A DNA stretch of 64,000 nucleotides, taken from positions 64,001-128,000 of the forward strand of contig JBFWVL010000006.1 in the NCBI GenBank assembly GCA_050246755.1. The letters run 5' to 3'. Source of the DNA: Bacteriovoracia bacterium (GTDB taxonomy: Bacteria > Bdellovibrionota > UBA1018 > CAIPTA01). The notes below the pieces were generated by a model. It was not told where the DNA came from and did no database searches. It worked only from the letters and a program-made list of their open reading frames with translations. Both the position numbers and the translations under genes were made by a program. Below, piece after piece: positions 15,055 through 27,850 of the stretch (position 1 is the first letter of the stretch; every line of letters starts with the position of its first letter).

Positions 15055-17124
15055 TTGATCCTCATTTTCGGAGCCTGGTTTCTATGGTTCGGCTGGAAAC
15101 CGGGAATTATATTTTCGGCGGGAGATGGCCTGGATTATGCGTATCCCGCGATTCATTTTTTAAAAGAAAATGTAACAAAAAATATTTACTACGATCCTTC
15201 CTGGCTAGGCGGGGCGAAAGTGGAAGGGGTTTGGGCAAGCCCTTGGTTCCTTAGTTTGCCCCTGCGTCTCGGGCTAAGCACGCCTTCCCTATTTTTTCTC
15301 TGCTTTTTCGTGCCGCAGGTATTGCTCGCGTTTGCTTCCTTACGATTCTTGGAAAGCTTGGGCGCGGGTGTCTCCGATTTTCGCCCGGCGAATATCCTCA
15401 AGAAAATCTCCTGGATATTCCTAGTTGCCTTCCCGCCTTTTCTCGGCTGGTCGTTCCTGGAAGGGCGATTTTTCTTTCCCTCTCTGTTCGCGCTGGCGGT
15501 TTGCGCCTTGTTCGCGAGTATCTGCCGAAGACAACTCAGCGTTTTCTCGGCTTTGGTATTGGTGGCTACCTTGGTGAGCACGGCGCAAAGCGTATCGTAC
15601 CAGCAGTTTATTTCGGCGGCCTACGTCAGCCTTCCATTCCTATCGATTTTGGCCTGGAAACTTAAGCCCGGGAAATTCGAGCTGGCGATTTTTTTTACCC
15701 TAGGTGCAGTGGCCGCGCTCTGGTGTCTCCGTCAGCAGCTAGAAATGCTCGCGCATTTTATGGGTGCCGACGCTTCCCGCTCGGAAAAGGGCGCGCAAAT
15801 TGTCTTCTCCTTCGTGGTGATGAACTGGCGCGACTGGCTTGCCTCGATTTTCTGGCATAGAGAGCTGCTAACGCCGCGGCGGCCCATGATCGAGATTACC
15901 GAAACGAATATCGCTTTCGGTCCCTTGTTGATTTTTCTCCTGGCCGGCTGGAGCTCTAGCCGCTGGCGCAGCTTGGGTTGGGCGGCACTGGGGCTATTCG
16001 TGGTTTTAGCGGCATTCGCTTCGAATGTATTTCCTGTTCCGTCGCTCCTATTTTTTCTCGCGCCTCCGCTGGAATATTTTCGCGTGCCGGTGCGCACGAT
16101 TTTTCCTCTCCTTTACTGTGCCCTGCCGATCGCGCTCTTTTTCCTCGAGGAGGCTAGGGCGCCCGGAACGGTAAAAAAATCATGGGCGGCGAGCTGGATC
16201 CTTCTTCTGAGTTTGGCCGTATACTTTAGCCCACCTCCGATCAGAGAGGGAATGGTTTGGATTTTAGTGGCGGCATTGGTGTGGAAAAAATCCGCTAAAA
16301 AATTCGGCAGTGAGGTTTTCCTTTTTCCGCTCGCGCTGGCGTCACTGCTGGCATTCGGCGCAAGACTAGCCTTTACTCACGACCTCAGTGAAACGGACGC
16401 GAATGCCCAGGCGCTCAGGGAGAAAATCCTGAGGGAGGCGCCCGAGCTTAAAAACCCTCTCGTGCGCGCCACGCTAGATTTTCAGGACAAAAAATTTCAC
16501 GCCAACACGGCGCACGTATTAGGAATTTCTTCCCTCGACGGATACTGGCAGCCACTAAAATCTTTTAACTCTATCGCCAGCGACGCTTACCGCGTTCCGG
16601 CCAATCCTCTCGCGCTGAATTTTCGCATCCCAAATTCGGAGCCGGCCTCGGAAAAACTATTCAAGCTTTACAACGTGAAATATCGCCTTCGCCTGGAAGC
16701 CGACGGCACATTGCGGGTGAGGCCCGTGGATTCTAAAGGAACGAGTGCGTGGCTGCTCCAGAGCGGCGCAGATTTGCCCTGCGGAGATGGCCAGGTAAAA
16801 GCGCTCCGCATCCTCGACGCTTATTTTTCTTTGGAGACTGAGGTGCAGAACGCCGGCGGCTGCCGCCTCGTGTTTGCGAGCAACTTCGCCGAAAATATAC
16901 TTGCCACCGATGAGGGAGGAAAAATTTTACCCACGCGGCCGGCGCTCGGCGGCCTCTTGGCCGTGCAATTACCTGAACATGTGGAACGCGTGAGCTTACG
17001 GGCCGTTTCCTCCGCGCCGGCTTGGACGAGGTTTTCTCAAATTTTAGGTGGGATATTATTCTTTCTGGCTATTGCGCTCTGGCGCCGCCGTTATCCTCGC
17101 CGCCTTCATCATCGGGCGGGATAA
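15055..17124 (+). CDS. YfhO-like polytopic membrane protein (GT-C fold)
   Basis: GDGLDYAYP...YYDPSWLGG, FRVPVR, SLDGY motifs; many TMs; start uncertain (the frame is open from about 14974). Confidence 0.6.
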   Translation: MILIFGAWFLWFGWKPGIIFSAGDGLDYAYPAIHFLKENVTKNIYYDPSWLGGAKVEGVWASPWFLSLPLRLGLSTPSLFFLCFFVPQVLLAFASLRFLESLGAGVSDFRPANILKKISWIFLVAFPPFLGWSFLEGRFFFPSLFALAVCALFASICRRQLSVFSALVLVATLVSTAQSVSYQQFISAAYVSLPFLSILAWKLKPGKFELAIFFTLGAVAALWCLRQQLEMLAHFMGADASRSEKGAQIVFSFVVMNWRDWLASIFWHRELLTPRRPMIEITETNIAFGPLLIFLLAGWSSSRWRSLGWAALGLFVVLAAFASNVFPVPSLLFFLAPPLEYFRVPVRTIFPLLYCALPIALFFLEEARAPGTVKKSWAASWILLLSLAVYFSPPPIREGMVWILVAALVWKKSAKKFGSEVFLFPLALASLLAFGARLAFTHDLSETDANAQALREKILREAPELKNPLVRATLDFQDKKFHANTAHVLGISSLDGYWQPLKSFNSIASDAYRVPANPLALNFRIPNSEPASEKLFKLYNVKYRLRLEADGTLRVRPVDSKGTSAWLLQSGADLPCGDGQVKALRILDAYFSLETEVQNAGGCRLVFASNFAENILATDEGGKILPTRPALGGLLAVQLPEHVERVSLRAVSSAPAWTRFSQILGGILFFLAIALWRRRYPRRLHHRAG

Positions 17125-17935
17125 TCGGCTCTCCCGGGGAAGAGCATTGCAGTAGTTCCGGCAGTGGGCTGAGCGTAGGGATGGCGCGCAGCTGCTCCGT
17201 GGACAAAGCCGGGGCTTCTCCGTTTTCTCCGCTCAAGTAAAAATCGCTGATTTCTTTGCCGGTGGCAGCAGAAATTTTTTCCAGGTAGCTGCGCTCTACT
17301 TCCAAAGGAGAATCGCCGGCAATCTTTGCGCCGACGCTACCCGTCCAGTCGTATACTTTCGTTTGTTCTATGAAAATAGGATTTTTTTCGCTTCCGCAGG
17401 GAACATCGTAACTCACAAAACGATTTGAAAATTCCAATTGCTGCGGCGATAGCCAGCGATACTCCAGACGGAGGCCCGATTCGCTTTGTGCCACCAACCG
17501 TTCCCGCGTATGTTCTTTAATCAAGTAGGTTTCGGTTGTGCCGTCGGTTTCAGTGAGCACGAGGGATTCGCAGCCGTTCTGGATGATGTTCAAATCGTCC
17601 TGGAGCTGGCTCACGTTCACCGGTGTGAACTGAAAAGCGCCAAAGGCGAAGAGCACTTCAAAATTGGCACGGATTTTTTTCTTCGAGCTGAATTGAATTT
17701 TTTTAGAAATTTCTAATCCGGTGATATCGGCGCTGATCTTTCGCAGGTTCTGTAGGTATTTAGGAATACTTAGGCAGCCTTGGGTATTAACGGATTCTTC
17801 TAAAGAAACAGATGTCCTGGCTGGAACGTGGTTTTGGGTATTTTCCGAGTCCCTATTCTTTCCGCAAGAGAGAACAGTGAGGGAGAAAATAAATAACCAG
17901 TTGGATCGGCGACACAGATTCGTGAGCGAAGGCAT
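17069..17935 (-). CDS. Hypothetical lipoprotein
   Basis: Lipobox VLSC; four further Cys; start placed at ATG 17935, after the upstream terminator. Confidence 0.6.
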   Translation of the reverse strand: MPSLTNLCRRSNWLFIFSLTVLSCGKNRDSENTQNHVPARTSVSLEESVNTQGCLSIPKYLQNLRKISADITGLEISKKIQFSSKKKIRANFEVLFAFGAFQFTPVNVSQLQDDLNIIQNGCESLVLTETDGTTETYLIKEHTRERLVAQSESGLRLEYRWLSPQQLEFSNRFVSYDVPCGSEKNPIFIEQTKVYDWTGSVGAKIAGDSPLEVERSYLEKISAATGKEISDFYLSGENGEAPALSTEQLRAIPTLSPLPELLQCSSPGEPIIPPDDEGGEDNGGARAQ

Positions 17936-17957
17936 TGGCGAAACTCCATCTCCATAG

Positions 17958-17988
17958 AAAAAGGGAGGCGGCTTGCACCGCCCCCCTT
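17958..17988 (-). terminator. Rho-independent terminator after the Q/K-repeat lipoprotein
   Basis: Minus strand AGGGGGGCGG-tgcaag-CCGCCTCCCT-TTTT. Confidence 0.75.
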
Positions 17989-18016
17989 CCTGCATTCTTG
18001 TTCTTATTTTAGCGGC

Positions 18017-18784
18017 TTATACTTTCGAGCCCTGATCCTGGCCTTTGTCTTCGCCTTTAGCAGGCTCTTCTACTTTGCCTTGGTCTTGGCCTTTATCTTG
18101 ATCCTGGCCTTTGCCTTGGTCTTCGTCTTTAGGCTGAGCAATCTCGCGGAGATTCATGGTGAAGGAAACAAGCTTGCAAGATTGTACTTCGCCCTTGTCT
18201 TCGCCTTTATCTTGGTCCGACCCCAGCGCCACGATTTTGCCTTGGTCTTGGCCTTTATCTTGATCCTGGTCTTGGCCTTTGTCTTCTTCTTTCGGAGCCA
18301 TGCACTCCTTAAGATTTACCGTTACGGTGCCCGTAGAGAGACCCTGATCGGCCGCTTCGTGAGTATACGAGAGGCTTTCCACGGTCATCCCCGATTTCGA
18401 AAATACGATCGAAGGGCTAGCTTCGTGAAGGTCGGCGGCCAAGATCAATTCTTCTCCCGACCAGAATTCGAGATTCTGCGCGCGAGTCTCCACGGCTTTA
18501 GAAATCGACGTCAACTCGGCCACGTTGGCGGCGAGGGTAGGGTAGCCTTCGAAGGTTGTGTCGTCGACCACGTCCACTGATTGCCCGTCGACCATCATCG
18601 AGCCTTTTTCTACGGTGAATGCATAGGCCGCAATGCCGCGCTCATAGGCTGGGTTGGAGTCGGCTAAGGCCGGTGCGGCTTTGGCGTTGCCGGAAGTGAG
18701 GGTATTGCTGTCGTTGCTGCCACTGCTGCAAGCGGCAAGAGAGCAGATGGCGAGAGCTCCGATAAATAGATTTCCTAATTTCAT
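18017..18784 (-). CDS. Lipoprotein with C-terminal (D)KGQDQ Gln/Lys/Asp repeats
   Basis: Lipobox LAAC; repeats DKGQDQDQDKGQDQGK...GKGQDQDKGQDQGK...DKGQDQGSK; RBS ggagg. Confidence 0.85.
   Translation of the reverse strand: MKLGNLFIGALAICSLAACSSGSNDSNTLTSGNAKAAPALADSNPAYERGIAAYAFTVEKGSMMVDGQSVDVVDDTTFEGYPTLAANVAELTSISKAVETRAQNLEFWSGEELILAADLHEASPSIVFSKSGMTVESLSYTHEAADQGLSTGTVTVNLKECMAPKEEDKGQDQDQDKGQDQGKIVALGSDQDKGEDKGEVQSCKLVSFTMNLREIAQPKDEDQGKGQDQDKGQDQGKVEEPAKGEDKGQDQGSKV
18074..18269. repeat. 34-bp exact direct repeat (18074-18107 and 18236-18269) within degenerate coding repeats
   Basis: tttgccttggtcttggcctttatcttgatcctgg occurs twice and encodes QDQDKGQDQGK. Confidence 0.9.
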
Positions 18785-18851
18785 TTTCTTAATCCTCCAA
18801 ATGAAGCCGAATAAATCGAGCCTCGTTAATTTTTAGTTCTTCGAGCCATTT

Positions 18852-18866
18852 GCAACTGCCGGACCA
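18852..18866 (-). promoter_or_regulatory. Putative sigma54 promoter (TGGTCCGGCAGTTGC) for the Q/K-repeat lipoprotein
   Basis: Correct -24/-12 spacing, 68 nt upstream of ATG. Confidence 0.6.
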
Positions 18867-19039
18867 ATTTTTTTTCCGCGGATCATCTAACGCTTTCTCT
18901 CGAGAGAACCGATGCGCGCAAATTTTGCGGATATTTTCTCCACGGGCGGCTTGGTACGTCGTAACGAAATCGCCCCGTGTTCCCGGGGCGGTCTTACTCT
19001 CTGATCTTATTTTTCTCTGACGAATTTCCGCTGTCTGCC

Positions 19040-19054
19040 CGGCACCGACTTTGC
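19040..19054 (+). promoter_or_regulatory. Putative sigma54 promoter (CGGCACCGACTTTGC) for the transglutaminase
   Basis: GGCAC-N5-TTGC, 68 nt upstream of ATG 19122. Confidence 0.65.
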
Positions 19055-19121
19055 GTGAGCGGCAGTTTGGAAGAGGAAAAAAATTTTATTTTGAATCAAC
19101 GTAGAAGCCCAAGGGGAAATT

Positions 19122-20627
19122 ATGAAACCAGGAATGTTTATGAGTGTGGCGTTCATGCCGGTGGTGCTAGCGGTATTTTCTATTTCCGCAGTAGCCGAAA
19201 CCGCGGCTGATTACTTAAAGGAGTTTCATGAAAATCCTGCGGCGGTAATGCAGCGTTTGCCCAGTTGGGTCGATGAAAAGGGCAATGCTCACCGCCGCGG
19301 AATTATTGATCAGCATGAGGTAGAAAGGAGATTTTCCGATCGTAAGGCGGCCCGTGCTCATATAACCGGACGCCGCGCGGATAGCTCAATTATTGGCGGA
19401 GACGTTCCCGACTCCAAGGACGTTCCCGAAAAATTGGTGGAACCAGGCTCGGCGATAGTTCGCAACTTACCGGAGATGGACGCCCGCGCCCTGACCCAGG
19501 GAGTAGTTCCGGTATTGCCTTGGACGGATTCTTATTGGCCCATGTATAGAGGAATCATCGGCTATCGCTACGCAGATAAATCTTTTCCCAAGTCGAAAGA
19601 CTGGCAGACAAACTACCAGTACGTGCAGGCCAATCCGGCTAGCTCGATCGTGGCCACCGGCGATACCGCGCTCATCAACGCACTTTCTCCGGCGGAAAAA
19701 TACGATTTCGCTCTTGGGGATCCCAATTTTACGCTTACCCATTTTTCGTGGGCTACGGGCGAAAAGCATTTTACCGAGACGGGATCGGTGGCCAGCTGGA
19801 TGGGAATTTGCCACGGCTGGAGCGGGGCGGCGCACATGCAGAGCGTGATCACCGAAATTCCGGTGGAGGTGATCGCCAGCAGTGGCGTGAAGGTTACTTT
19901 CTTTCCCCAGGACGTGAAAGCCCTGCAATCGATGCTGTGGGCGAATGCTTCTCCACCGACCCGCTTCGTGGGGAATCGCTGCGATACACCAAAGCCGCCA
20001 AAGAACGCGTACGGACGCATCCTGGATCCCAACTGTTTTGATACCAATCCCGGTACCTGGCATACGGCGGTAGTAAACCAGCTGGGAATAAATCAGCGAA
20101 GCTTCGTGATGGATTCCACCTACGACGCGCAGGTCTGGAATTTTTCGCTTTCCAAATATAGGTATAAGTACATCAATCCCCAAACGTTCCAGGAAACCTC
20201 GAACCTCGCCAGGGCCGCCATTTCCATCGAGCGTTTTACCTTGGATAAATTCAAGGAGTTCCGTTCTCCCGGTGTGCGTTTCGTGGTGGGAGTGGCGATG
20301 GACGCCTCTTACGTGAGCGATATTGCTCCCACGCGGGCGAACAAAGTGGAGCCCTCGCTGAAGACTCTGCGCTTTATTTACGACCTTGAGCTCGACGAGA
20401 ACTACAATATCATCGGCGGGGAATGGTATTCGAATGCGCACCCGGACTTTATGTGGACCTTCGATAAATCTGCGCAGGCCATGGCGCCAGGAGATGCCCA
20501 ACTGGCGAATGCCGATTGGACACTCGCCAGCCCAGTGCCGGCGGACTGGGCCGCGCCGGCGCAAAGAGCAGCTAGCCGGGGGGCGCCTCTATTCGCTTTC
20601 ATTCGCCGTTTGGTAGGTGCACCTTAG
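19122..20627 (+). CDS. Secreted transglutaminase, GP42/TGase_elicitor family
   Basis: Signal peptide; [23 protein letters not shown] (catalytic Cys-His), QDVKAL (catalytic Asp), [13 protein letters not shown]...VWN, YDLELD...IIGGEW...HPDFMW, collinear with Phytophthora GP42-type TGases as I recall them. Confidence 0.8.
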
Positions 20628-21403
20628 CCGAAATGGCCGGTGATATAATCTTCGGTCAGCTTCACGGTGGGGTTCGTGAAGATCTTGCCGGTTTCGTTAA
20701 ACTCGATAAGCTCGCCCATATACATAAAGGCGGTGTACTCCGAGGTACGGGCGGCCTGCTGCATATTGTGGGTCACGATCACCACGCAATATTCGGTGCG
20801 GATCTCGCCGATTAGCTCTTCGATGCGGGCGGTGGAGATAGGGTCGAGCGCAGAGGTGGGCTCGTCGAGGAGCAGTACTTCCGGGCGCACTGCGATCGCG
20901 CGGGCAATGCACAAGCGCTGCTGCTGGCCGCCGGAAAGGCTCATGCCGTTTTGTTTCAACTTATCTTTTACTTCGTTCCAGAGGGCCGCTTTCTGCAAAG
21001 CCCACTGCACGCGCTCTTCTAGCTCGGCCCAGGAAAGAGTCTCGTAAAGCTTCACGCCGAAGGCCACGTTATCGAAGATCGACATGGGGAATGGAGTGGG
21101 TTTTTGGAATACCATGCCGATCTTGGCGCGGATTTTATTAATGTCTTCGCGGGAATCGAGAATATTAGTGCCGTTGAACCCGATCTCACCCGTGGCTTTC
21201 TGTTTCGGATACAGCTCGTACATGCGGTTGAACGTGCGAAGGAGCGTGGATTTCCCGCAGCCCGAAGGGCCGATGAAGGCGGTAACGGTTTTATCGGGGA
21301 TGGTAAAATTCACGGATTTTACGGCGTGGAAACCACCGTAGAAAAAGTTGAGGTCTTTTACCTGCAATTTCGATATGCCTTTGGGGACCGCAATATTCGT
21401 CAT
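20624..21403 (-). CDS. pstB: Phosphate ABC transporter ATPase
   Basis: [53 protein letters not shown]. Confidence 0.97.
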
Positions 21404-21418
21404 CTGCTTCTCCAGTAT

Positions 21419-22261
21419 TTAGCCACGGCGCGCCCGGAGCGCAAAGCGGGCGATAATATTTAAAAATAAAACGGCGAGTGTGATCAAGAGGGCGCCGGCC
21501 CAGGCCAGATGCTGCCAGTCGTCGTAGGGGCTCATGGCGAACTGAAAGATCACTACGGGCAGGTTCGCCATCGGTTTATTGAGATCTGTATTCCAGAACT
21601 GGTTATTGAGGGCCGTAAACAGCAGCGGGGCGGATTCGCCGCTGATGCGGGCGATCCCGAGAAGTATACCGGTGAAAATACCGTTCCTGGCCGCGCGATA
21701 GGTTACCGATACGGTGATCTTCCACTGGGGAGCCCCCAGCGCGGCCGCGGCTTCGCGCAAGTTATTCGGCACTAGCAGCAGCATATTCTCGGTATTGCTC
21801 ACCACGAGGGGAATGAGAATCGTGGCGAGCGCGCAGGTGCCCGCCCAGCCGGAGAAATGCCCCATCCTGGCTACCACCACCGTGTAGATGAAAAATCCGA
21901 TCACCACGGAGGGCGCAGAGAGCAAAATACTGTTCACGAAGCGAATCACCTCGGCGAGCTTATTGTTGCGGCCGAATTCGGCGAGGTAGGTTCCCGCCAA
22001 AATTCCGATCGGCGTTCCGATCAGGGTGCCGATGCCGGTGAGCATAAGACTGCCCACGATCGCGTTTAGCAAGCCACCTTTGTTTCCGGGCGGAGGGGTC
22101 ATTTCGCGGAATACCGCCATCTGCAGGGCGGGGATTCCGTTGCGGAAAAGAGTAAATAAAATCGCGCCGAGAGCCAGGAGGCCGATCATCATCGCTAAGC
22201 AAGCCGCCCCGAGGCCAAGGCGGTTCACGATTTTTCGGCGTCGGTAAAGGGAAGCGTCCAT
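21419..22261 (-). CDS. pstA: Phosphate ABC permease PstA
   Basis: [38 protein letters not shown]. Confidence 0.95.
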
Positions 22262-23271
22262 TAGGTTTCCGCTCCGTCTCTGCGCTTCATGCGAATGAGT
22301 AATATTTTTGCGAGCGCCAACACGATGAAAGTGATCACGAAGAGGATGAGCCCGAGCTCGATCAGGGCGGAGGTGTAGAGCGTGCCCACAGCCTCGGTGA
22401 ACTCATTGGCGAGCGCCGACGAAATCGTATTGCCCGGCATGAGCAAAGAGCCGGATAGCTCGTGCGCATTTCCGATCACGAAGGTAACCGCCATGGTTTC
22501 TCCGAGGGCGCGGCCGAGGCCGAGCATAATTCCGCCGATCACGCCCAGTTTGGTATGAGGAAGTACCACGCGCCAGGCCACTTCCCAGGTGGTGGCGCCC
22601 AGGCCGTAGGCGGATTCTTTGAGCATCGGCGGAACTACGTCGAACACATCGCGCATTACCGAAGAAATAAAAGGAATGATCATGATCGCCAGGATCATTC
22701 CCGCCGTGAACATACCGATGCCTAGGGGCGGGCCTTGGAATAAAGTGCCCACTATCGGCCAGGCGCCCAGATTGGCAACTAGCCAAGGGTGAATATTTTT
22801 CGCGAAGAAAGGGGCGAACACGAAAAGCCCCCACATGCCGTAAATAATGCTGGGAATGGCGGCGAGCAGTTCGATGGCGATGCCGAGTGGAATTCTCAGC
22901 ACGCGGGGGGAGAGCTCGGTGAGAAAAAGGGCGATCCCGAAACTGATCGGAACTCCGATCAGCAGCGCAATCCCGGAAGTGACCAAGGTTCCGAAGATAG
23001 GAACACCGGCGCCGAATGCTTCGGCCACGGGATCCCAGTGCGTATTGAAGAAAAAGCCCCAGCCGAAAGCCTTGATCGCCGGAAGACTGCCGTGGACAAG
23101 GGCGGCGACGATGGCCAGGAGAAGAGCGAGCACGAATAGGGCAAAGAAAAGAGTCGACGCCCGAAAAATTCGATTGATCCAGCGCTGTTGTTTTAGGCGT
23201 AAATCGATGCGGGCCAAAGAGAGCGAACCATCCTTCTCCGTCACGAGGTTACTCTCGCGCGTATGATCCAT
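22261..23271 (-). CDS. pstC: Phosphate ABC permease PstC
   Basis: [38 protein letters not shown]. Confidence 0.95.
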
Positions 23272-23319
23272 GATAGTCCGCCCGCTCCGTATGACGCTGC
23301 ACGAAAAAGCGTTTGATCA

Positions 23320-24336
23320 CTAATTCTTCAGCTCGTCTTTCCAGGTTTTCTCGACGAGTTTCGATACCTTTGCCGGTACCGGTACATAATGGAGCTCTTC
23401 CGCCATGGTCTTTCCGTTGGCGAAAGCCCAACGGAAGAATTTCACGGCTTCCTTGGCTTGTTCCGCATTGCTAGGGTCCTTACGCATGAGCACGAAGGTA
23501 GAGCCGGCGATCGGCCAGCTACCGGCACCGGGGGCGTCGGTAAGGATGAGGTAATAGTTCTTTGCCTTAGCCCAGTCGGCGCCAGCCGCGGCGGCTTCGA
23601 AGGATTTGCTATTGGGCTCAACGAACTTTCCGGCCGCATTCTTCATCTGCGCGAAAGCTATTTTATTCTGAAGCGCGTACGCATATTCCACGTAACCGAT
23701 CGAGCCTTCGATTTGCTTTACGTAGGAGGCCACGCCTTCGTTTCCTTTGCCTCCCACACCAGTAGGCCAGTTCACGGCGCTGCCTTCACCCACCTTGGAT
23801 TTCCATTCTTCGCTGACTTTCGAGAGGTAGTTGGTGAAGATGAAAGAGCTGCCCGAACCGTCGGAGCGGTGAACGATGCTAACCGCGGTGGCGGGAAGCT
23901 TCACTCCCGGATTCAGTTTGGAGATCGCGGCGTCGTTCCAGGTTTTTACTTTGCCGAGGAAAATATCGGCGAGCACAGGCCCCGAAAGTTTTAACTGACC
24001 CGAAGCTACGCCGGGAACATTGATGATGGGAACGAGGGCGCCGTTGATGATGGGAAACTGCACGAGATGATCTTTTTCGAGATCTTCCGCCTTGAGAGGC
24101 ATGTCGGTGGCGCCGAAATCCACGGTCTTGCCTTGAATTTGCTTGATGCCGCCGCCCGAACCGATGGACTGGTAATTCACCGAGCTTCCCGTTGCCTTTT
24201 TATAAGCGTCGGCCCATTTAGCGATCACGGGGTAAACGAAAGTAGAGCCGGCTCCGGTTACGTCAACGGCGAAGGCCGAAGGCATCGCTAGAAAGGCCGC
24301 GAGCGCGAGAGCAATAGAAAGGCGTGGAATGGGCAT
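23320..24336 (-). CDS. pstS: Phosphate-binding protein PstS
   Basis: TGAGSTF, YQSIGSGGG, DFGATD, RSDGSG, GKGNEGV, IGYVEYAYA. Confidence 0.96.
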   Translation of the reverse strand: MPIPRLSIALALAAFLAMPSAFAVDVTGAGSTFVYPVIAKWADAYKKATGSSVNYQSIGSGGGIKQIQGKTVDFGATDMPLKAEDLEKDHLVQFPIINGALVPIINVPGVASGQLKLSGPVLADIFLGKVKTWNDAAISKLNPGVKLPATAVSIVHRSDGSGSSFIFTNYLSKVSEEWKSKVGEGSAVNWPTGVGGKGNEGVASYVKQIEGSIGYVEYAYALQNKIAFAQMKNAAGKFVEPNSKSFEAAAAGADWAKAKNYYLILTDAPGAGSWPIAGSTFVLMRKDPSNAEQAKEAVKFFRWAFANGKTMAEELHYVPVPAKVSKLVEKTWKDELKN

Positions 24337-24451: not shown

Positions 24452-24466
24452 TGGCACGATGGTTGC
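24452..24466 (+). promoter_or_regulatory. sigma54 promoter (TGGCACGATGGTTGC)
   Basis: Exact match to the TGGCACG-N4-TTGC consensus, 33 nt upstream of the DoxX-like gene. Confidence 0.75.
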
Positions 24467-24498
24467 TCTATGGGCCTTGGGGCAGTTAAGGGGGCAAA

Positions 24499-25041
24499 GT
24501 GGTGCGTGTGCAGCGAAAAAATGAAAATGATCACCTAAGGTTGGTGGCCAATCGGGAAAAGAAGCAGGCGTTTCAGCGTTCAGCCGTGGACCGCAACCGA
24601 GGTTCCGTGGTTTTGGGCTTCCGCCTTTTGCAATTCGCGCTGGCCATACTTTTGGCGGGAGCGGGGGCCGATAAAATTTTCCAGGCTTCTTTAACCTGGA
24701 ACCAATACGTTCCCGCGATCTTGCCTTGGCTCTTCGGGATGGACGTTTCGTCTTTTCTCGCCGTGATTGGATTGTTCGAAGTAGCTCTGGCGCTCGGGCT
24801 GGTACTTGCCCCAGGGTATTTTGGCGGAGTGGTTTCTCTCTGGCTTTTATTGGCGAATTTCAACTTAGTGGCCAGCGGAAACTTCTTAGACCTTGGTTTA
24901 CGAGATCTTTCGCTCGCGATCTGTGCCTTTGCGCTGGGCTCTCTTGGGCAAATCCCAGAAATTTCCACCTTGCATCGAATTAAGCCGAGGCGCTTTCGCC
25001 TTCTTGTATCGAAGAATCCGCGATTTCAAGCAGCCCAATAG
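24499..25041 (+). CDS. DoxX-family membrane protein
   Basis: AGADKIF..LTW.QY, GLFEVALALG, LDLGLRDLSL; 4 TMs. Confidence 0.7.
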   Translation: MVRVQRKNENDHLRLVANREKKQAFQRSAVDRNRGSVVLGFRLLQFALAILLAGAGADKIFQASLTWNQYVPAILPWLFGMDVSSFLAVIGLFEVALALGLVLAPGYFGGVVSLWLLLANFNLVASGNFLDLGLRDLSLAICAFALGSLGQIPEISTLHRIKPRRFRLLVSKNPRFQAAQ

Positions 25042-27125: not shown

Positions 27126-27722
27126 CTAATTGGTGATGCGTACACGCGTATTCGCGCGTCCATATTTACTGACCAGGCGAAAAAGGCGGTCCGCATTCGT
27201 TGGGTGCTGGCGAATGCAGCCGCCGGAATCACGGCGTCCCAGCATCCGGATATGGTCGCCGTAGGTGGCGTGAAGGGCGATTCCGCCCACGATGAAAATC
27301 GCCCGGTCCATGCGCGCCTCCCAAGAGCGCGAGGTATAGGTATAGTGCAGGCTTTTAGGAGAAAAAACTCCACTGGGAGTATGGGCAGTATAGCAGCGGC
27401 CATTCGGGGGGCAGCGTACCGTTTCGGAGCCGGTGGAAACAGCCCAGTCGCCGAAGAGCTGGCCATTTTCCCAGACCCAGAGGTGCTGGCGGGATTTATC
27501 TACGAGTACGTAGACGGCGGCATCGCGGGGGTCTTTCAGGCCGATAGTGAAATCAATGTTGATGGAGTCGTCGAGGCGAACGCCTTCTCGGAGCATTTCT
27601 CCGTAGATTTCCGCGGGGCTGGCGATATCACCGAGCTCTGCTTCGCCGGAAGCAAAGGTCTCTGCAGCCAAGGCGGCGTGAATGGGCAACGCAAACAATA
27701 GAAACGCTAGAATCAGTTTCAT
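27126..27722 (-). CDS. L,D-transpeptidase (YkuD family)
   Basis: Signal peptide; VDKSRQHL, VSTG, TPSG, GIALHAT...LGRRDSGGCIR. Confidence 0.9.
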   Translation of the reverse strand: MKLILAFLLFALPIHAALAAETFASGEAELGDIASPAEIYGEMLREGVRLDDSINIDFTIGLKDPRDAAVYVLVDKSRQHLWVWENGQLFGDWAVSTGSETVRCPPNGRCYTAHTPSGVFSPKSLHYTYTSRSWEARMDRAIFIVGGIALHATYGDHIRMLGRRDSGGCIRQHPTNADRLFRLVSKYGRANTRVRITN

Positions 27723-27850
27723 GATTTTCTCCTCGGGTTTTTCCTTGCGGCTCTCAGCGCGCGGCCGAAACATAGCAAAGCCCGGGTACGCTTACAATAA
27801 AGCATCTGCCGCGAGGCGTTTTGGTAAATAGGCGCTCTGCGTCATTTTTT

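Follow-up and report, generated by a model that had tools for sequence, protein, structure and literature searches.

The window analyzed here is a 64-kb stretch (64,000 nucleotides, nt) of contig JBFWVL010000006.1 (positions 64,001 to 128,000, forward strand; assembly GCA_050246755.1) from a Bacteriovoracia bacterium of the phylum Bdellovibrionota. Two divergent genes of this window lie head-to-head with a 337-nt spacer between them: TG (+), encoding a secreted protein of the family of the transglutaminase elicitor GP42, and LPP (-), encoding a lipoprotein with Gln/Lys-rich repeats. A second lipoprotein gene, LP2, follows LPP on the minus strand. Comparison of related loci indicated that TG, LPP, and LP2 very likely constitute one functionally linked, co-regulated module, in which LPP is a candidate substrate of TG. 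The features of the locus are listed below with the evidence for each.

17069-17995, minus strand: LP2, second lipoprotein, probable start Met at 17935 (open reading frame (ORF), 21 nt past the LPP stop)
18017-18784, minus strand: LPP, lipoprotein of 255 amino acids (ORF, lipobox, family profile)
18020-18136, minus strand: LPP repeat block 2, residues 217-255, Gln/Lys/Asp/Gly C-terminal tail (ORF reading, Tandem Repeats Finder)
18179-18301, minus strand: LPP repeat block 1, residues 162-202, Gln/Lys/Asp/Gly loop (between Cys161 and Cys203)
18851-18866, minus strand: sigma-54-type -24/-12 element of LPP-LP2, TGGTCC-N5-TTGCA (motif scan)
19040-19055, plus strand: sigma-54-type -24/-12 element of TG, CGGCAC-N5-TTGCG (motif scan)
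19122-20627, plus strand: TG, GP42-type transglutaminase-like secreted enzyme of 501 amino acids (ORF, PF16683 match, orthologues)
19809-19814, plus strand: TG Cys230-His231 codons, "CH" catalytic motif (alignment with GP42)

The enzyme and the two lipoproteins

The initial annotation of this DNA had read the motif set of GP42/TGase_elicitor proteins in TG and had proposed a profile search against the Pfam family. All of these motifs were present, and TG matched PF16683 (TGase_elicitor) with 125.7 bits against a cut-off of 25 (E 2.4e-36), the match covering residues 122-447 of TG and positions 18-332 of the 361-position profile. The sole sequence match of TG in the PDB, at E 5.5e-21, was the "transglutaminase elicitor" GP42 of Phytophthora sojae (3tw5). 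TG WMGICHGWS (226-234) aligned with GP42 WFGISHAWS, the crystal chain having Ser at the Cys position; QDVKAL (263-268) aligned with MDLKAL, VWN with VWN, and IIGGEW..HPDFMW (430-445) with IIGGEW..HPDFLW. In an alignment of TG with 77 homologues from related loci, C230-H231 was invariant (78/78), and D264, D331, D335, N340, H440, and D442 were each conserved in at least 95% of the 78 sequences. The Asp of GP42 "MDLKAL" corresponded to D264 and the Asn of "VWN" to N340, these partner residues being assigned by alignment only. A Journal of Biological Chemistry paper of 2023 on papain-like enzymes (PMC10318531) describes GP42 as unusual: its His comes immediately after the Cys (the "CH" motif), and either an Asp of a neighbouring helix or an Asn of strand beta-2 orients this His. 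The aligned positions of D264 and N340 fit this CH plus Asp/Asn site. The sequence thus places TG in the GP42/TGase_elicitor family, and its Cys-His motif is intact.

The N-terminus of TG, read by eye, carries a Sec-type hydrophobic signal ending in ..SAVA/ET, from which export from the cytoplasm is predicted. Cys287 and Cys305 were invariant in homologues, consistent with a disulfide, and orthologues with 45-53% identity were found in the same gene context. The stretch of TG aligned to the Pep-13 region shared only VWN with the GP42 chain, so TG is not a Pep-13 elicitor. The literature on TGase_elicitor/PF16683 concerned oomycetes only among the matches listed. Transglutaminase activity of GP42 was reportedly described by Brunner in 2002 and by Reiss in 2011; we know of no defined protein substrate of GP42 and of no substrate of its bacterial relatives. 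A second TGase_elicitor paralogue in the window's genome (G000:C4:97995-98987; L035:6735-8150), 40% identical to TG over 392 amino acids, comes after a gene for a 383-amino-acid protein and has no LPP, LP2, or Gln/Lys-rich neighbour.

The initial annotation had also described LPP as a lipoprotein encoded head-to-head with the enzyme and ending in DKGQDQ/GQDQGK repeats, one block of them bracketed by two Cys residues. This description held throughout. From the N-terminus, LPP consists of the lipobox Cys19, a disordered linker, a beta domain, a repeat loop, and a repeat tail, the repeats running from residue 162 on and the loop (residues 162-202) being flanked by Cys161 and Cys203. The pattern [LVI][ASTVI][GAS]C marks bacterial lipoproteins (Lgt/LspA substrates); the LPP lipobox reads L-A-A-C19, and its Cys was invariant in 16/16 aligned orthologues. 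Lipoprotein sorting follows the +2 rule, which is uncertain outside enterobacteria, and the Ser at +2 of LPP predicts that the protein probably resides in the outer membrane. An AlphaFold2 model built on a 12-sequence alignment showed a folded domain of eight strands and one helix (about residues 50-161 plus a strand at 202-214), with a predicted local distance difference test score (pLDDT) above 90 over residues 50-165 and 202-214. The first 43 residues and residues 162-201 and 215-255 were disordered, and the Gln/Lys-rich loop and tail, with pLDDT below 55, appeared flexible, as a scaffold would be. Cys161 and Cys203 lie on the last two strands. Exactly three Cys residues, that of the lipobox and the two bracketing the loop, were present in 13/13 full-length LPP orthologues from the loci.

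LPP had no Pfam family, and a PDB fold search gave no match at E <= 0.001, all TM-scores being below 0.35. A word-indexed protein search with residues 1-170 found LPP itself and one fragment only, and an exhaustive search with a profile, run over 1.84 billion representative proteins, yielded a family of 100 clusters at E <= 0.001, of which 78 reached E <= 1e-10. An NCBIfam EntB match to the repeats, at 17 bits where the cut-off is 780, was rejected as low-complexity noise. An antisense ORF over the gene (18080-18580, +) was likewise rejected as a real gene, since it is the minus-strand product that shows conservation and a folded AlphaFold2 model.

Tandem Repeats Finder detected DNA periodicities of 12, 18, and 36 nt under the repeats. 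We determined the composition of loop plus tail in the 72 LPP family members that had both Cys residues and at least 30 residues in these segments: Gln made up 21.2%, Glu 16.2%, Lys 12.6%, Gly 9.4%, Asp 8.8%, and Pro 8.5%, against 3.3% Gln and 2.7% Lys in the folded domains. Both Gln (>=15%) and Lys (>=10%) were enriched in 53/72 members, Gln only in 11, and Lys only in 4; among all 79 two-Cys members, the loop contained Gln in 75 and Lys in 67. The repeat units differed wholly across lineages (QDKG, DQDK, QDQGKG, EQEQDKSP, ETPVQEQEKK, QQQGKDD, and APVEPQDQGKG), so that the composition of loop and tail is kept and their sequence is not. Spacings of two, four, or six residues between Gln and Lys were much more frequent than in shuffled segments (z = +9 to +12), and spacings of one or three residues were less frequent (z = -5 to -10); these z values overstate the register because repeats within one protein are not independent. 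A six-frame scan of the whole 3.5-Mb genome found Gln/Lys/Asp/Gly-rich windows only in LPP and in one unrelated vWA/TPR protein. The latter, encoded outside the window at G000:C1:1049962-1051980 (+), resembles, as judged by eye, membrane proteins of Bat aerotolerance type and has a long QQQGQDQQK.. tail.

LP2, a gene not noted in the initial annotation, encodes a V-L-S-C lipobox whose Cys was invariant in 12/12 aligned orthologues, as were four further Cys residues (C54, C122, C180, and C264). Its AlphaFold2 model, mainly a beta domain, had a pLDDT of 83.9. No Pfam family matched LP2, and a PDB fold search gave no match at E <= 0.001 and no TM-score of 0.35 or above, with weak lipocalin/START-like leads only. 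A search of the Atlas returned entries named "lipoprotein" without a family at scores of 0.80-0.82, together with lipocalin/DUF1579-like rows at TM-scores of 0.25-0.34, again as leads only. We propose that LP2 is a co-transcribed, disulfide-bonded, lipocalin-like lipoprotein. For neither LPP nor LP2 did these searches find a described family.

Conservation of the gene pair and its promoters

We first collected 80 TG loci from contigs representing one genome per species. The closest belonged to metagenome-assembled genomes that carry the labels Bdellovibrionales, Pseudobdellovibrionaceae, Bdellovibrio sp., and Oligoflexia. Thiothrix and its relatives, Polyangia, Desulfobulbaceae/cable bacteria, Crocosphaera, and others had more distant TGs, with 36-47% identity in the best-matching segment. 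Hidden Markov model matches to the LPP domain were found in 15 of the 80 loci, in every case divergent from TG, and matches to LP2 in 11; LP2 followed LPP in 11 of the 15 LPP-bearing loci. A scan of the 80 loci for Gln/Lys-rich sequence returned 28 ORFs. Sixteen belonged to the LPP family (from every one of the 15 LPP loci except L044 and L051), and the remaining 12, inspected by eye, comprised 3 TG N-termini and others that were unrelated or probably spurious. All Gln/Lys-rich repeats on signal-bearing proteins in these loci were of the LPP family.

Because this survey was anchored on TG, we repeated it anchored on LPP, searching a 401-genome sample of Bdellovibrionota with a 16-sequence profile of the folded domain. 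LPP was present in 22 of the 401 genomes (the window's own, 5/7 of its family, 13/53 of f21, 2/27 of f25, and G279 of f31). A search of 127 genomes of the window's class with this profile gave LPP in 7. The neighbourhood survey for a Gln/Lys-repeat partner that the initial annotation had called for came out in favour of the pairing: TG lay within 5 kb of LPP in 18 of the 22 LPP-bearing genomes, that is, in 18 of the 19 that could be assessed, LPP lying at a contig end in the other three (G001, G423, and G359). The genomes that could be assessed span two classes of the phylum and include Pseudobdellovibrio. The single assessable exception, G345, had no TG in the 11.4 kb around LPP. TG and LPP were divergent in 11 genomes (G000, G002, G004, G005, G008, G343, G288, G183, G351, G333, and G279) and directly convergent in one (G425). 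In the other six (G258, G401, G387, G413, G276, and G309) the order was LPP, LP2, a Peptidase_S8 lipoprotein, and a 144-amino-acid ORF on one strand, with TG facing them on the other. A divergent pair was also present in G003, outside the 401-genome sample, and LP2 followed LPP in 11/19 loci of this survey.

In five Pseudobdellovibrio-type genomes, which carry 1-4 PF16683 copies each, the LPP-linked TG was the best-scoring copy. Exact look-up matched two of the genomes to named strains: G258 is Pseudobdellovibrio sp. HCB154, and G401 is "Bdellovibrio sp. qaytius". TG of both strains and LP2 of HCB154 are annotated there as "hypothetical protein"; for the LPP of G258 the look-up gave no exact match. 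Unlinked second LPP paralogues were found in the Pseudobdellovibrio-type genomes G258 (L145:1255-1992, -) and G359 (L144:739-1470, +), with a 7-residue Cys loop, a (DQDK)n tail, and no TG within 3.5 kb.

In a maximum-likelihood tree of 85 TGs, a branch with an SH-aLRT support of 99% separated the 23 LPP-linked sequences from the 20 TGs that have a Peptidase_C11 neighbour; an unlinked paralogue and a long-branch sequence fell with the LPP-linked group. This topology suggests that the TG-LPP linkage probably arose once. The linkage has outlasted at least two rearrangements and divergence to 37-53% identity in TG and 25-50% in LPP.

The initial annotation had further noted a sigma-54-type promoter about 68 nt upstream of each gene, and both sites stood up to closer analysis. 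Candidate elements were scored with a weighted TGGCAC-N5-TTGCW pattern in which GG and GC were required (maximum 15). The two elements of the spacer each scored 13/15, each faced its own gene, and the -12 GC of each lay 68 nt before the start codon of TG or LPP; the whole window contained 12 sites at >=13/15 on both strands. In all 15 orthologous loci, LPP had a -24/-12 element 47-81 nt before its start, and TG had a GG-N10-GC element upstream. The LPP sites gave the consensus TGG.cc-N5-TTGCt, and in the stacked TG sites only GG and TTGC/TGC were conserved, the flanks having diverged. In Pseudobdellovibrio-type loci TG and LPP are not divergent, yet both keep their elements: LPP retained TGGCA(C/T)-N5-TTGCT in 7/8 loci, two of them with a perfect TGGCAC-N5-TTGCT, and TG retained TGGAAT-N5-(G/C)TGCA in 6/7, against a background in these loci of 0.43 sites per kb per strand at scores >=12. 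The distance of the LPP element from the start was 34-81 nt over all loci. RpoN is encoded in the genome (contig C3), as are 27 Sigma54_activat matches, 23 of them strong (E <= 3e-44), with none within 10 kb of the TG-LPP locus. No sigma-70-like site was found in the spacer. Taken together, these comparisons make the predicted sigma-54 dependence of both transcription units well supported.

Scanning the spacer for repeats revealed neither a convincing inverted repeat shared among loci nor a convincing activator site. Halfway between the two sigma-54 elements, a direct repeat (TCCACGGGCGG at 18939-18949 and TCCCGGGGCGG at 18981-18991; 42 nt apart) may be an activator site. The spacer also contains a GC-rich hairpin at 18971-18990. 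An Rfam scan of 16900-20800 returned one small RNA match below threshold (22 bits against 39), which was rejected, and no family at threshold.

Protease genes recurred near TG. A Peptidase_S8 gene adjoined TG in 14/80 TG loci; a subtilase was present in 9/15 LPP loci and in the single Pseudobdellovibrio-type locus inspected (L147), and none adjoined TG-LPP-LP2 in the window itself. Peptidase_S8 genes within or beside the cluster included L147:6306-7445 (+), L046:6541-7950 (-), and L034:35-1498 (+), at least one of which encodes a lipobox. A Peptidase_C11 (clostripain) gene followed TG in 20/80 loci (L038:7592-9148 (+), L056, L058, L064, L067, L068, L074, and others), and these TGs formed a separate TGase_elicitor subfamily from Bdellovibrionota and Polyangia. 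TGase_elicitor and Peptidase_C11 may be a zymogen-activation pair.

A candidate cross-linking system and its alternatives

We propose the following model of how the module could work. A sigma-54 enhancer-binding protein would switch on TG and LPP-LP2 together; TG would be exported, and LPP and LP2 would be lipidated and sent to the outer membrane by the +2 rule. There, the disulfide-stapled beta domain of LPP would display one Gln/Lys-rich loop and trail a second Gln/Lys-rich tail. Cys230 of TG would attack Gln side chains of the loop and tail to form a thioester, and the acyl group would then be passed to Lys residues on adjacent LPP molecules or to amines elsewhere in the envelope, resulting in a covalently cross-linked, lipid-anchored layer. 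The subtilase encoded in the cluster of most relatives may process the N-terminal extension of TG and activate a pro-form, or it may trim the product. In this model, we infer the transamidase activity, the acceptor, where in the cell the module acts, and what LP2 and the protease contribute, and we assign a probability of about 0.5 to LPP being the substrate that TG cross-links. The "cyst wall" and "prey seal" suggested for such a layer are speculation.

Several observations weigh against LPP as the cross-linked substrate. We found no biochemistry of bacterial TGase_elicitor members in the literature searched. The 65 of 80 TG loci that belong to other lineages had no LPP or Gln/Lys-rich neighbour, so such a partner is not a general requirement of the TG family. 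The LPP-linked TGs fall on one side of a single branch, so that the 18 genomes with the pair are not independent observations. Within the LPP family, 4/72 members, which are distant and in part have short loops, showed enrichment of neither Gln nor Lys. The LPP of G001 has a tail rich in Gln and Asp but poor in Lys, and self-polymerization via Lys therefore cannot be general; that of G008 has an 18-residue loop with 4 Gln and 1 Lys, almost no tail, and a 2-Lys end, and the pairing is kept there, so it may be the folded domain that matters to TG. Acidic low-complexity tails rich in Gln, Glu, and Lys also occur on unrelated exported proteins, such as the Bat-like protein. Finally, the papain/transglutaminase fold class includes many hydrolases, according to PMC10318531. 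A prediction of the complex between TG 25-501 and LPP 20-255, both entered as alignments, gave a score of 0.00 (mark 0.32; controls not run), a result that bears on binding in neither direction.

A possible, less probable explanation is that LPP and/or LP2 are binding partners of TG, serving as anchor, chaperone, inhibitor, or immunity/decoy protein, while TG acts elsewhere, for example on envelopes of prey or neighbours; the repeats would then be a hydrophilic spacer or a decoy. An enzyme with an adjoining lipoprotein is the usual layout of effector and immunity genes, and two epibiotic predators, Pseudobdellovibrio sp. HCB154 and "Bdellovibrio sp. qaytius", carry the module. The best conserved parts of LPP are its folded domain and the two Cys residues, and G008 keeps the pair with an LPP that has no long repeats. 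A spacer role, however, leaves unexplained why Gln (21%) and Lys (13%) are kept through turnover of the units and in a period-2 register, and one of the repeat blocks is a disulfide-stapled loop rather than a segment between anchor and domain. Moreover, TG homologues of the non-predatory Thiothrix, cable bacteria, and cyanobacteria have no such partner.

We consider it unlikely that TG is a hydrolase (a protease, protein-glutaminase/deamidase, or peptidoglycan amidase) with LPP as its target or as an unrelated co-regulated protein. The composition of the fold class, the frequent proximity of TG genes to Peptidase_C11 (20/80) and Peptidase_S8 (14/80) genes, and the lack of an assay of any bacterial member in the literature searched are consistent with hydrolysis. 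The only characterized member, GP42, is however called a transglutaminase in both its family name and its PDB title, TG and its homologues share the unusual CH active site, and deamidation would need no enrichment of Lys beside Gln. It is very improbable that there is no functional link at all, with the genes neighbours by shared descent and the repeats drifting low-complexity sequence. A single ancestral juxtaposition could explain the one-sided distribution of LPP-linked TGs, in a module limited to a few families of one phylum; nevertheless, the linkage outlasted rearrangement and divergence while other flanking genes changed, both genes keep their own sigma-54 elements, and composition is conserved where sequence is not.

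Cross-linking of LPP by TG can also be set beside known systems. Cross-linking by transglutaminases is textbook knowledge for animal skin, blood clots, and Bacillus spore coats, and we know of no Gram-negative envelope built in this way. Bacillus subtilis Tgl, a papain-fold transglutaminase, hardens the spore coat through the Gln/Lys-rich proteins GerQ and SafA under alternative sigma control. The candidate system shares with it an enzyme with dedicated structural proteins at the cell surface and an alternative sigma factor, whereas Tgl belongs to an unrelated family and a monoderm spore coat, and GerQ and SafA are neither lipoproteins nor encoded beside Tgl. In the cornified envelope, TG1 and TG3 act on involucrin, loricrin, and SPRR proteins, whose tandem repeats of Gln, Glu, and Lys are donor and acceptor scaffolds. 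Fast-evolving repeat units of kept composition and a scaffold at the membrane are common to both, but the cornified envelope is eukaryotic, its enzymes have the Ca2+-dependent TG2-type fold, and it is the enzyme TG1, not the scaffold, that is lipid-anchored. Streptomyces mobaraensis transglutaminase is secreted as a pro-form, activated by co-secreted proteases, and acts on secreted protease inhibitors; it offers an analogy for the S8 and C11 protease genes beside TGase_elicitor genes, while differing in fold family, monoderm host, and substrates that are not lipoproteins. GP42 itself is of the same family as TG, secreted, and alike in the CH motif and, by alignment, in conserved Asp/Asn positions. 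TG differs from it in being bacterial, in carrying about 120 additional residues N-terminal to the Pfam domain, and in being encoded beside a Gln/Lys-repeat lipoprotein under sigma-54-type promoters.

A variant that we regard as quite unlikely is that Gln residues of LPP are joined to Lys of neighbouring LPP molecules and/or to the meso-diaminopimelate amine of peptidoglycan, as an envelope link independent of Lpp. Braun Lpp is a small outer-membrane lipoprotein whose C-terminal end is tied to peptidoglycan by an L,D-transpeptidase, a Cys enzyme. Its likeness to a peptidoglycan-linked LPP is a functional analogy only: neither LPP nor the genome (95.7% complete) had a PF04728 match, and the chemistry would be Gln transamidation rather than L,D-transpeptidation. 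Such an Lpp-independent link under sigma-54 control would be a cross-linked layer or an outer membrane-to-wall tether, and Pseudobdellovibrio and other epibiotic predators could use it as a reinforced zone of attachment to prey.

No description of a bacterial TG-lipoprotein system of this kind was found in the literature searched. As predicted from the sequences, the module would be a new combination of a GP42-type enzyme, a stapled-loop lipoprotein scaffold, an accessory lipoprotein, and sigma-54 control in a diderm predatory lineage. Comparative genomics yields an enzyme and a candidate substrate in which, apart from a small fold, nothing but the Gln/Lys content is conserved, together with an accessory lipoprotein, a protease that is likely to be the activator, and shared regulation. 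If LPP is indeed cross-linked by TG, the module would represent a new type of covalently built envelope in predatory bacteria and a natural, genetically encoded pair of Gln/Lys tag and enzyme. Its presence in the cultured strains HCB154 and "Bdellovibrio sp. qaytius" means that genetics may be feasible.

Neighbouring genes and other sites in the window

A pstB-pstA-pstC-pstS phosphate transport operon (20624-24336, -), named by eye from the translations, is convergent with TG, and a gene for a 689-amino-acid polytopic membrane protein without a Pfam or NCBIfam family (15055-17124, +) is convergent with LP2 and overlaps its end. In the related loci that were compared, no match to either lay close to TG and LPP, and a link of the module to either was dropped because neither is a conserved neighbour. 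One PstB-like match was present in G006, where it adjoins an LPP-less TG copy.

The genome contains four YkuD (L,D-transpeptidase) matches, one of them in the window at about 27165-27515 (-; ORF 27126-27773). A perfect sigma-54 consensus, TGGCACGATGGTTGCT (24452-24467, +), lies 47 nt before ORF 24499-25041, which encodes a 180-amino-acid protein with no Pfam family and is divergent from pstS (23320-24336, -).

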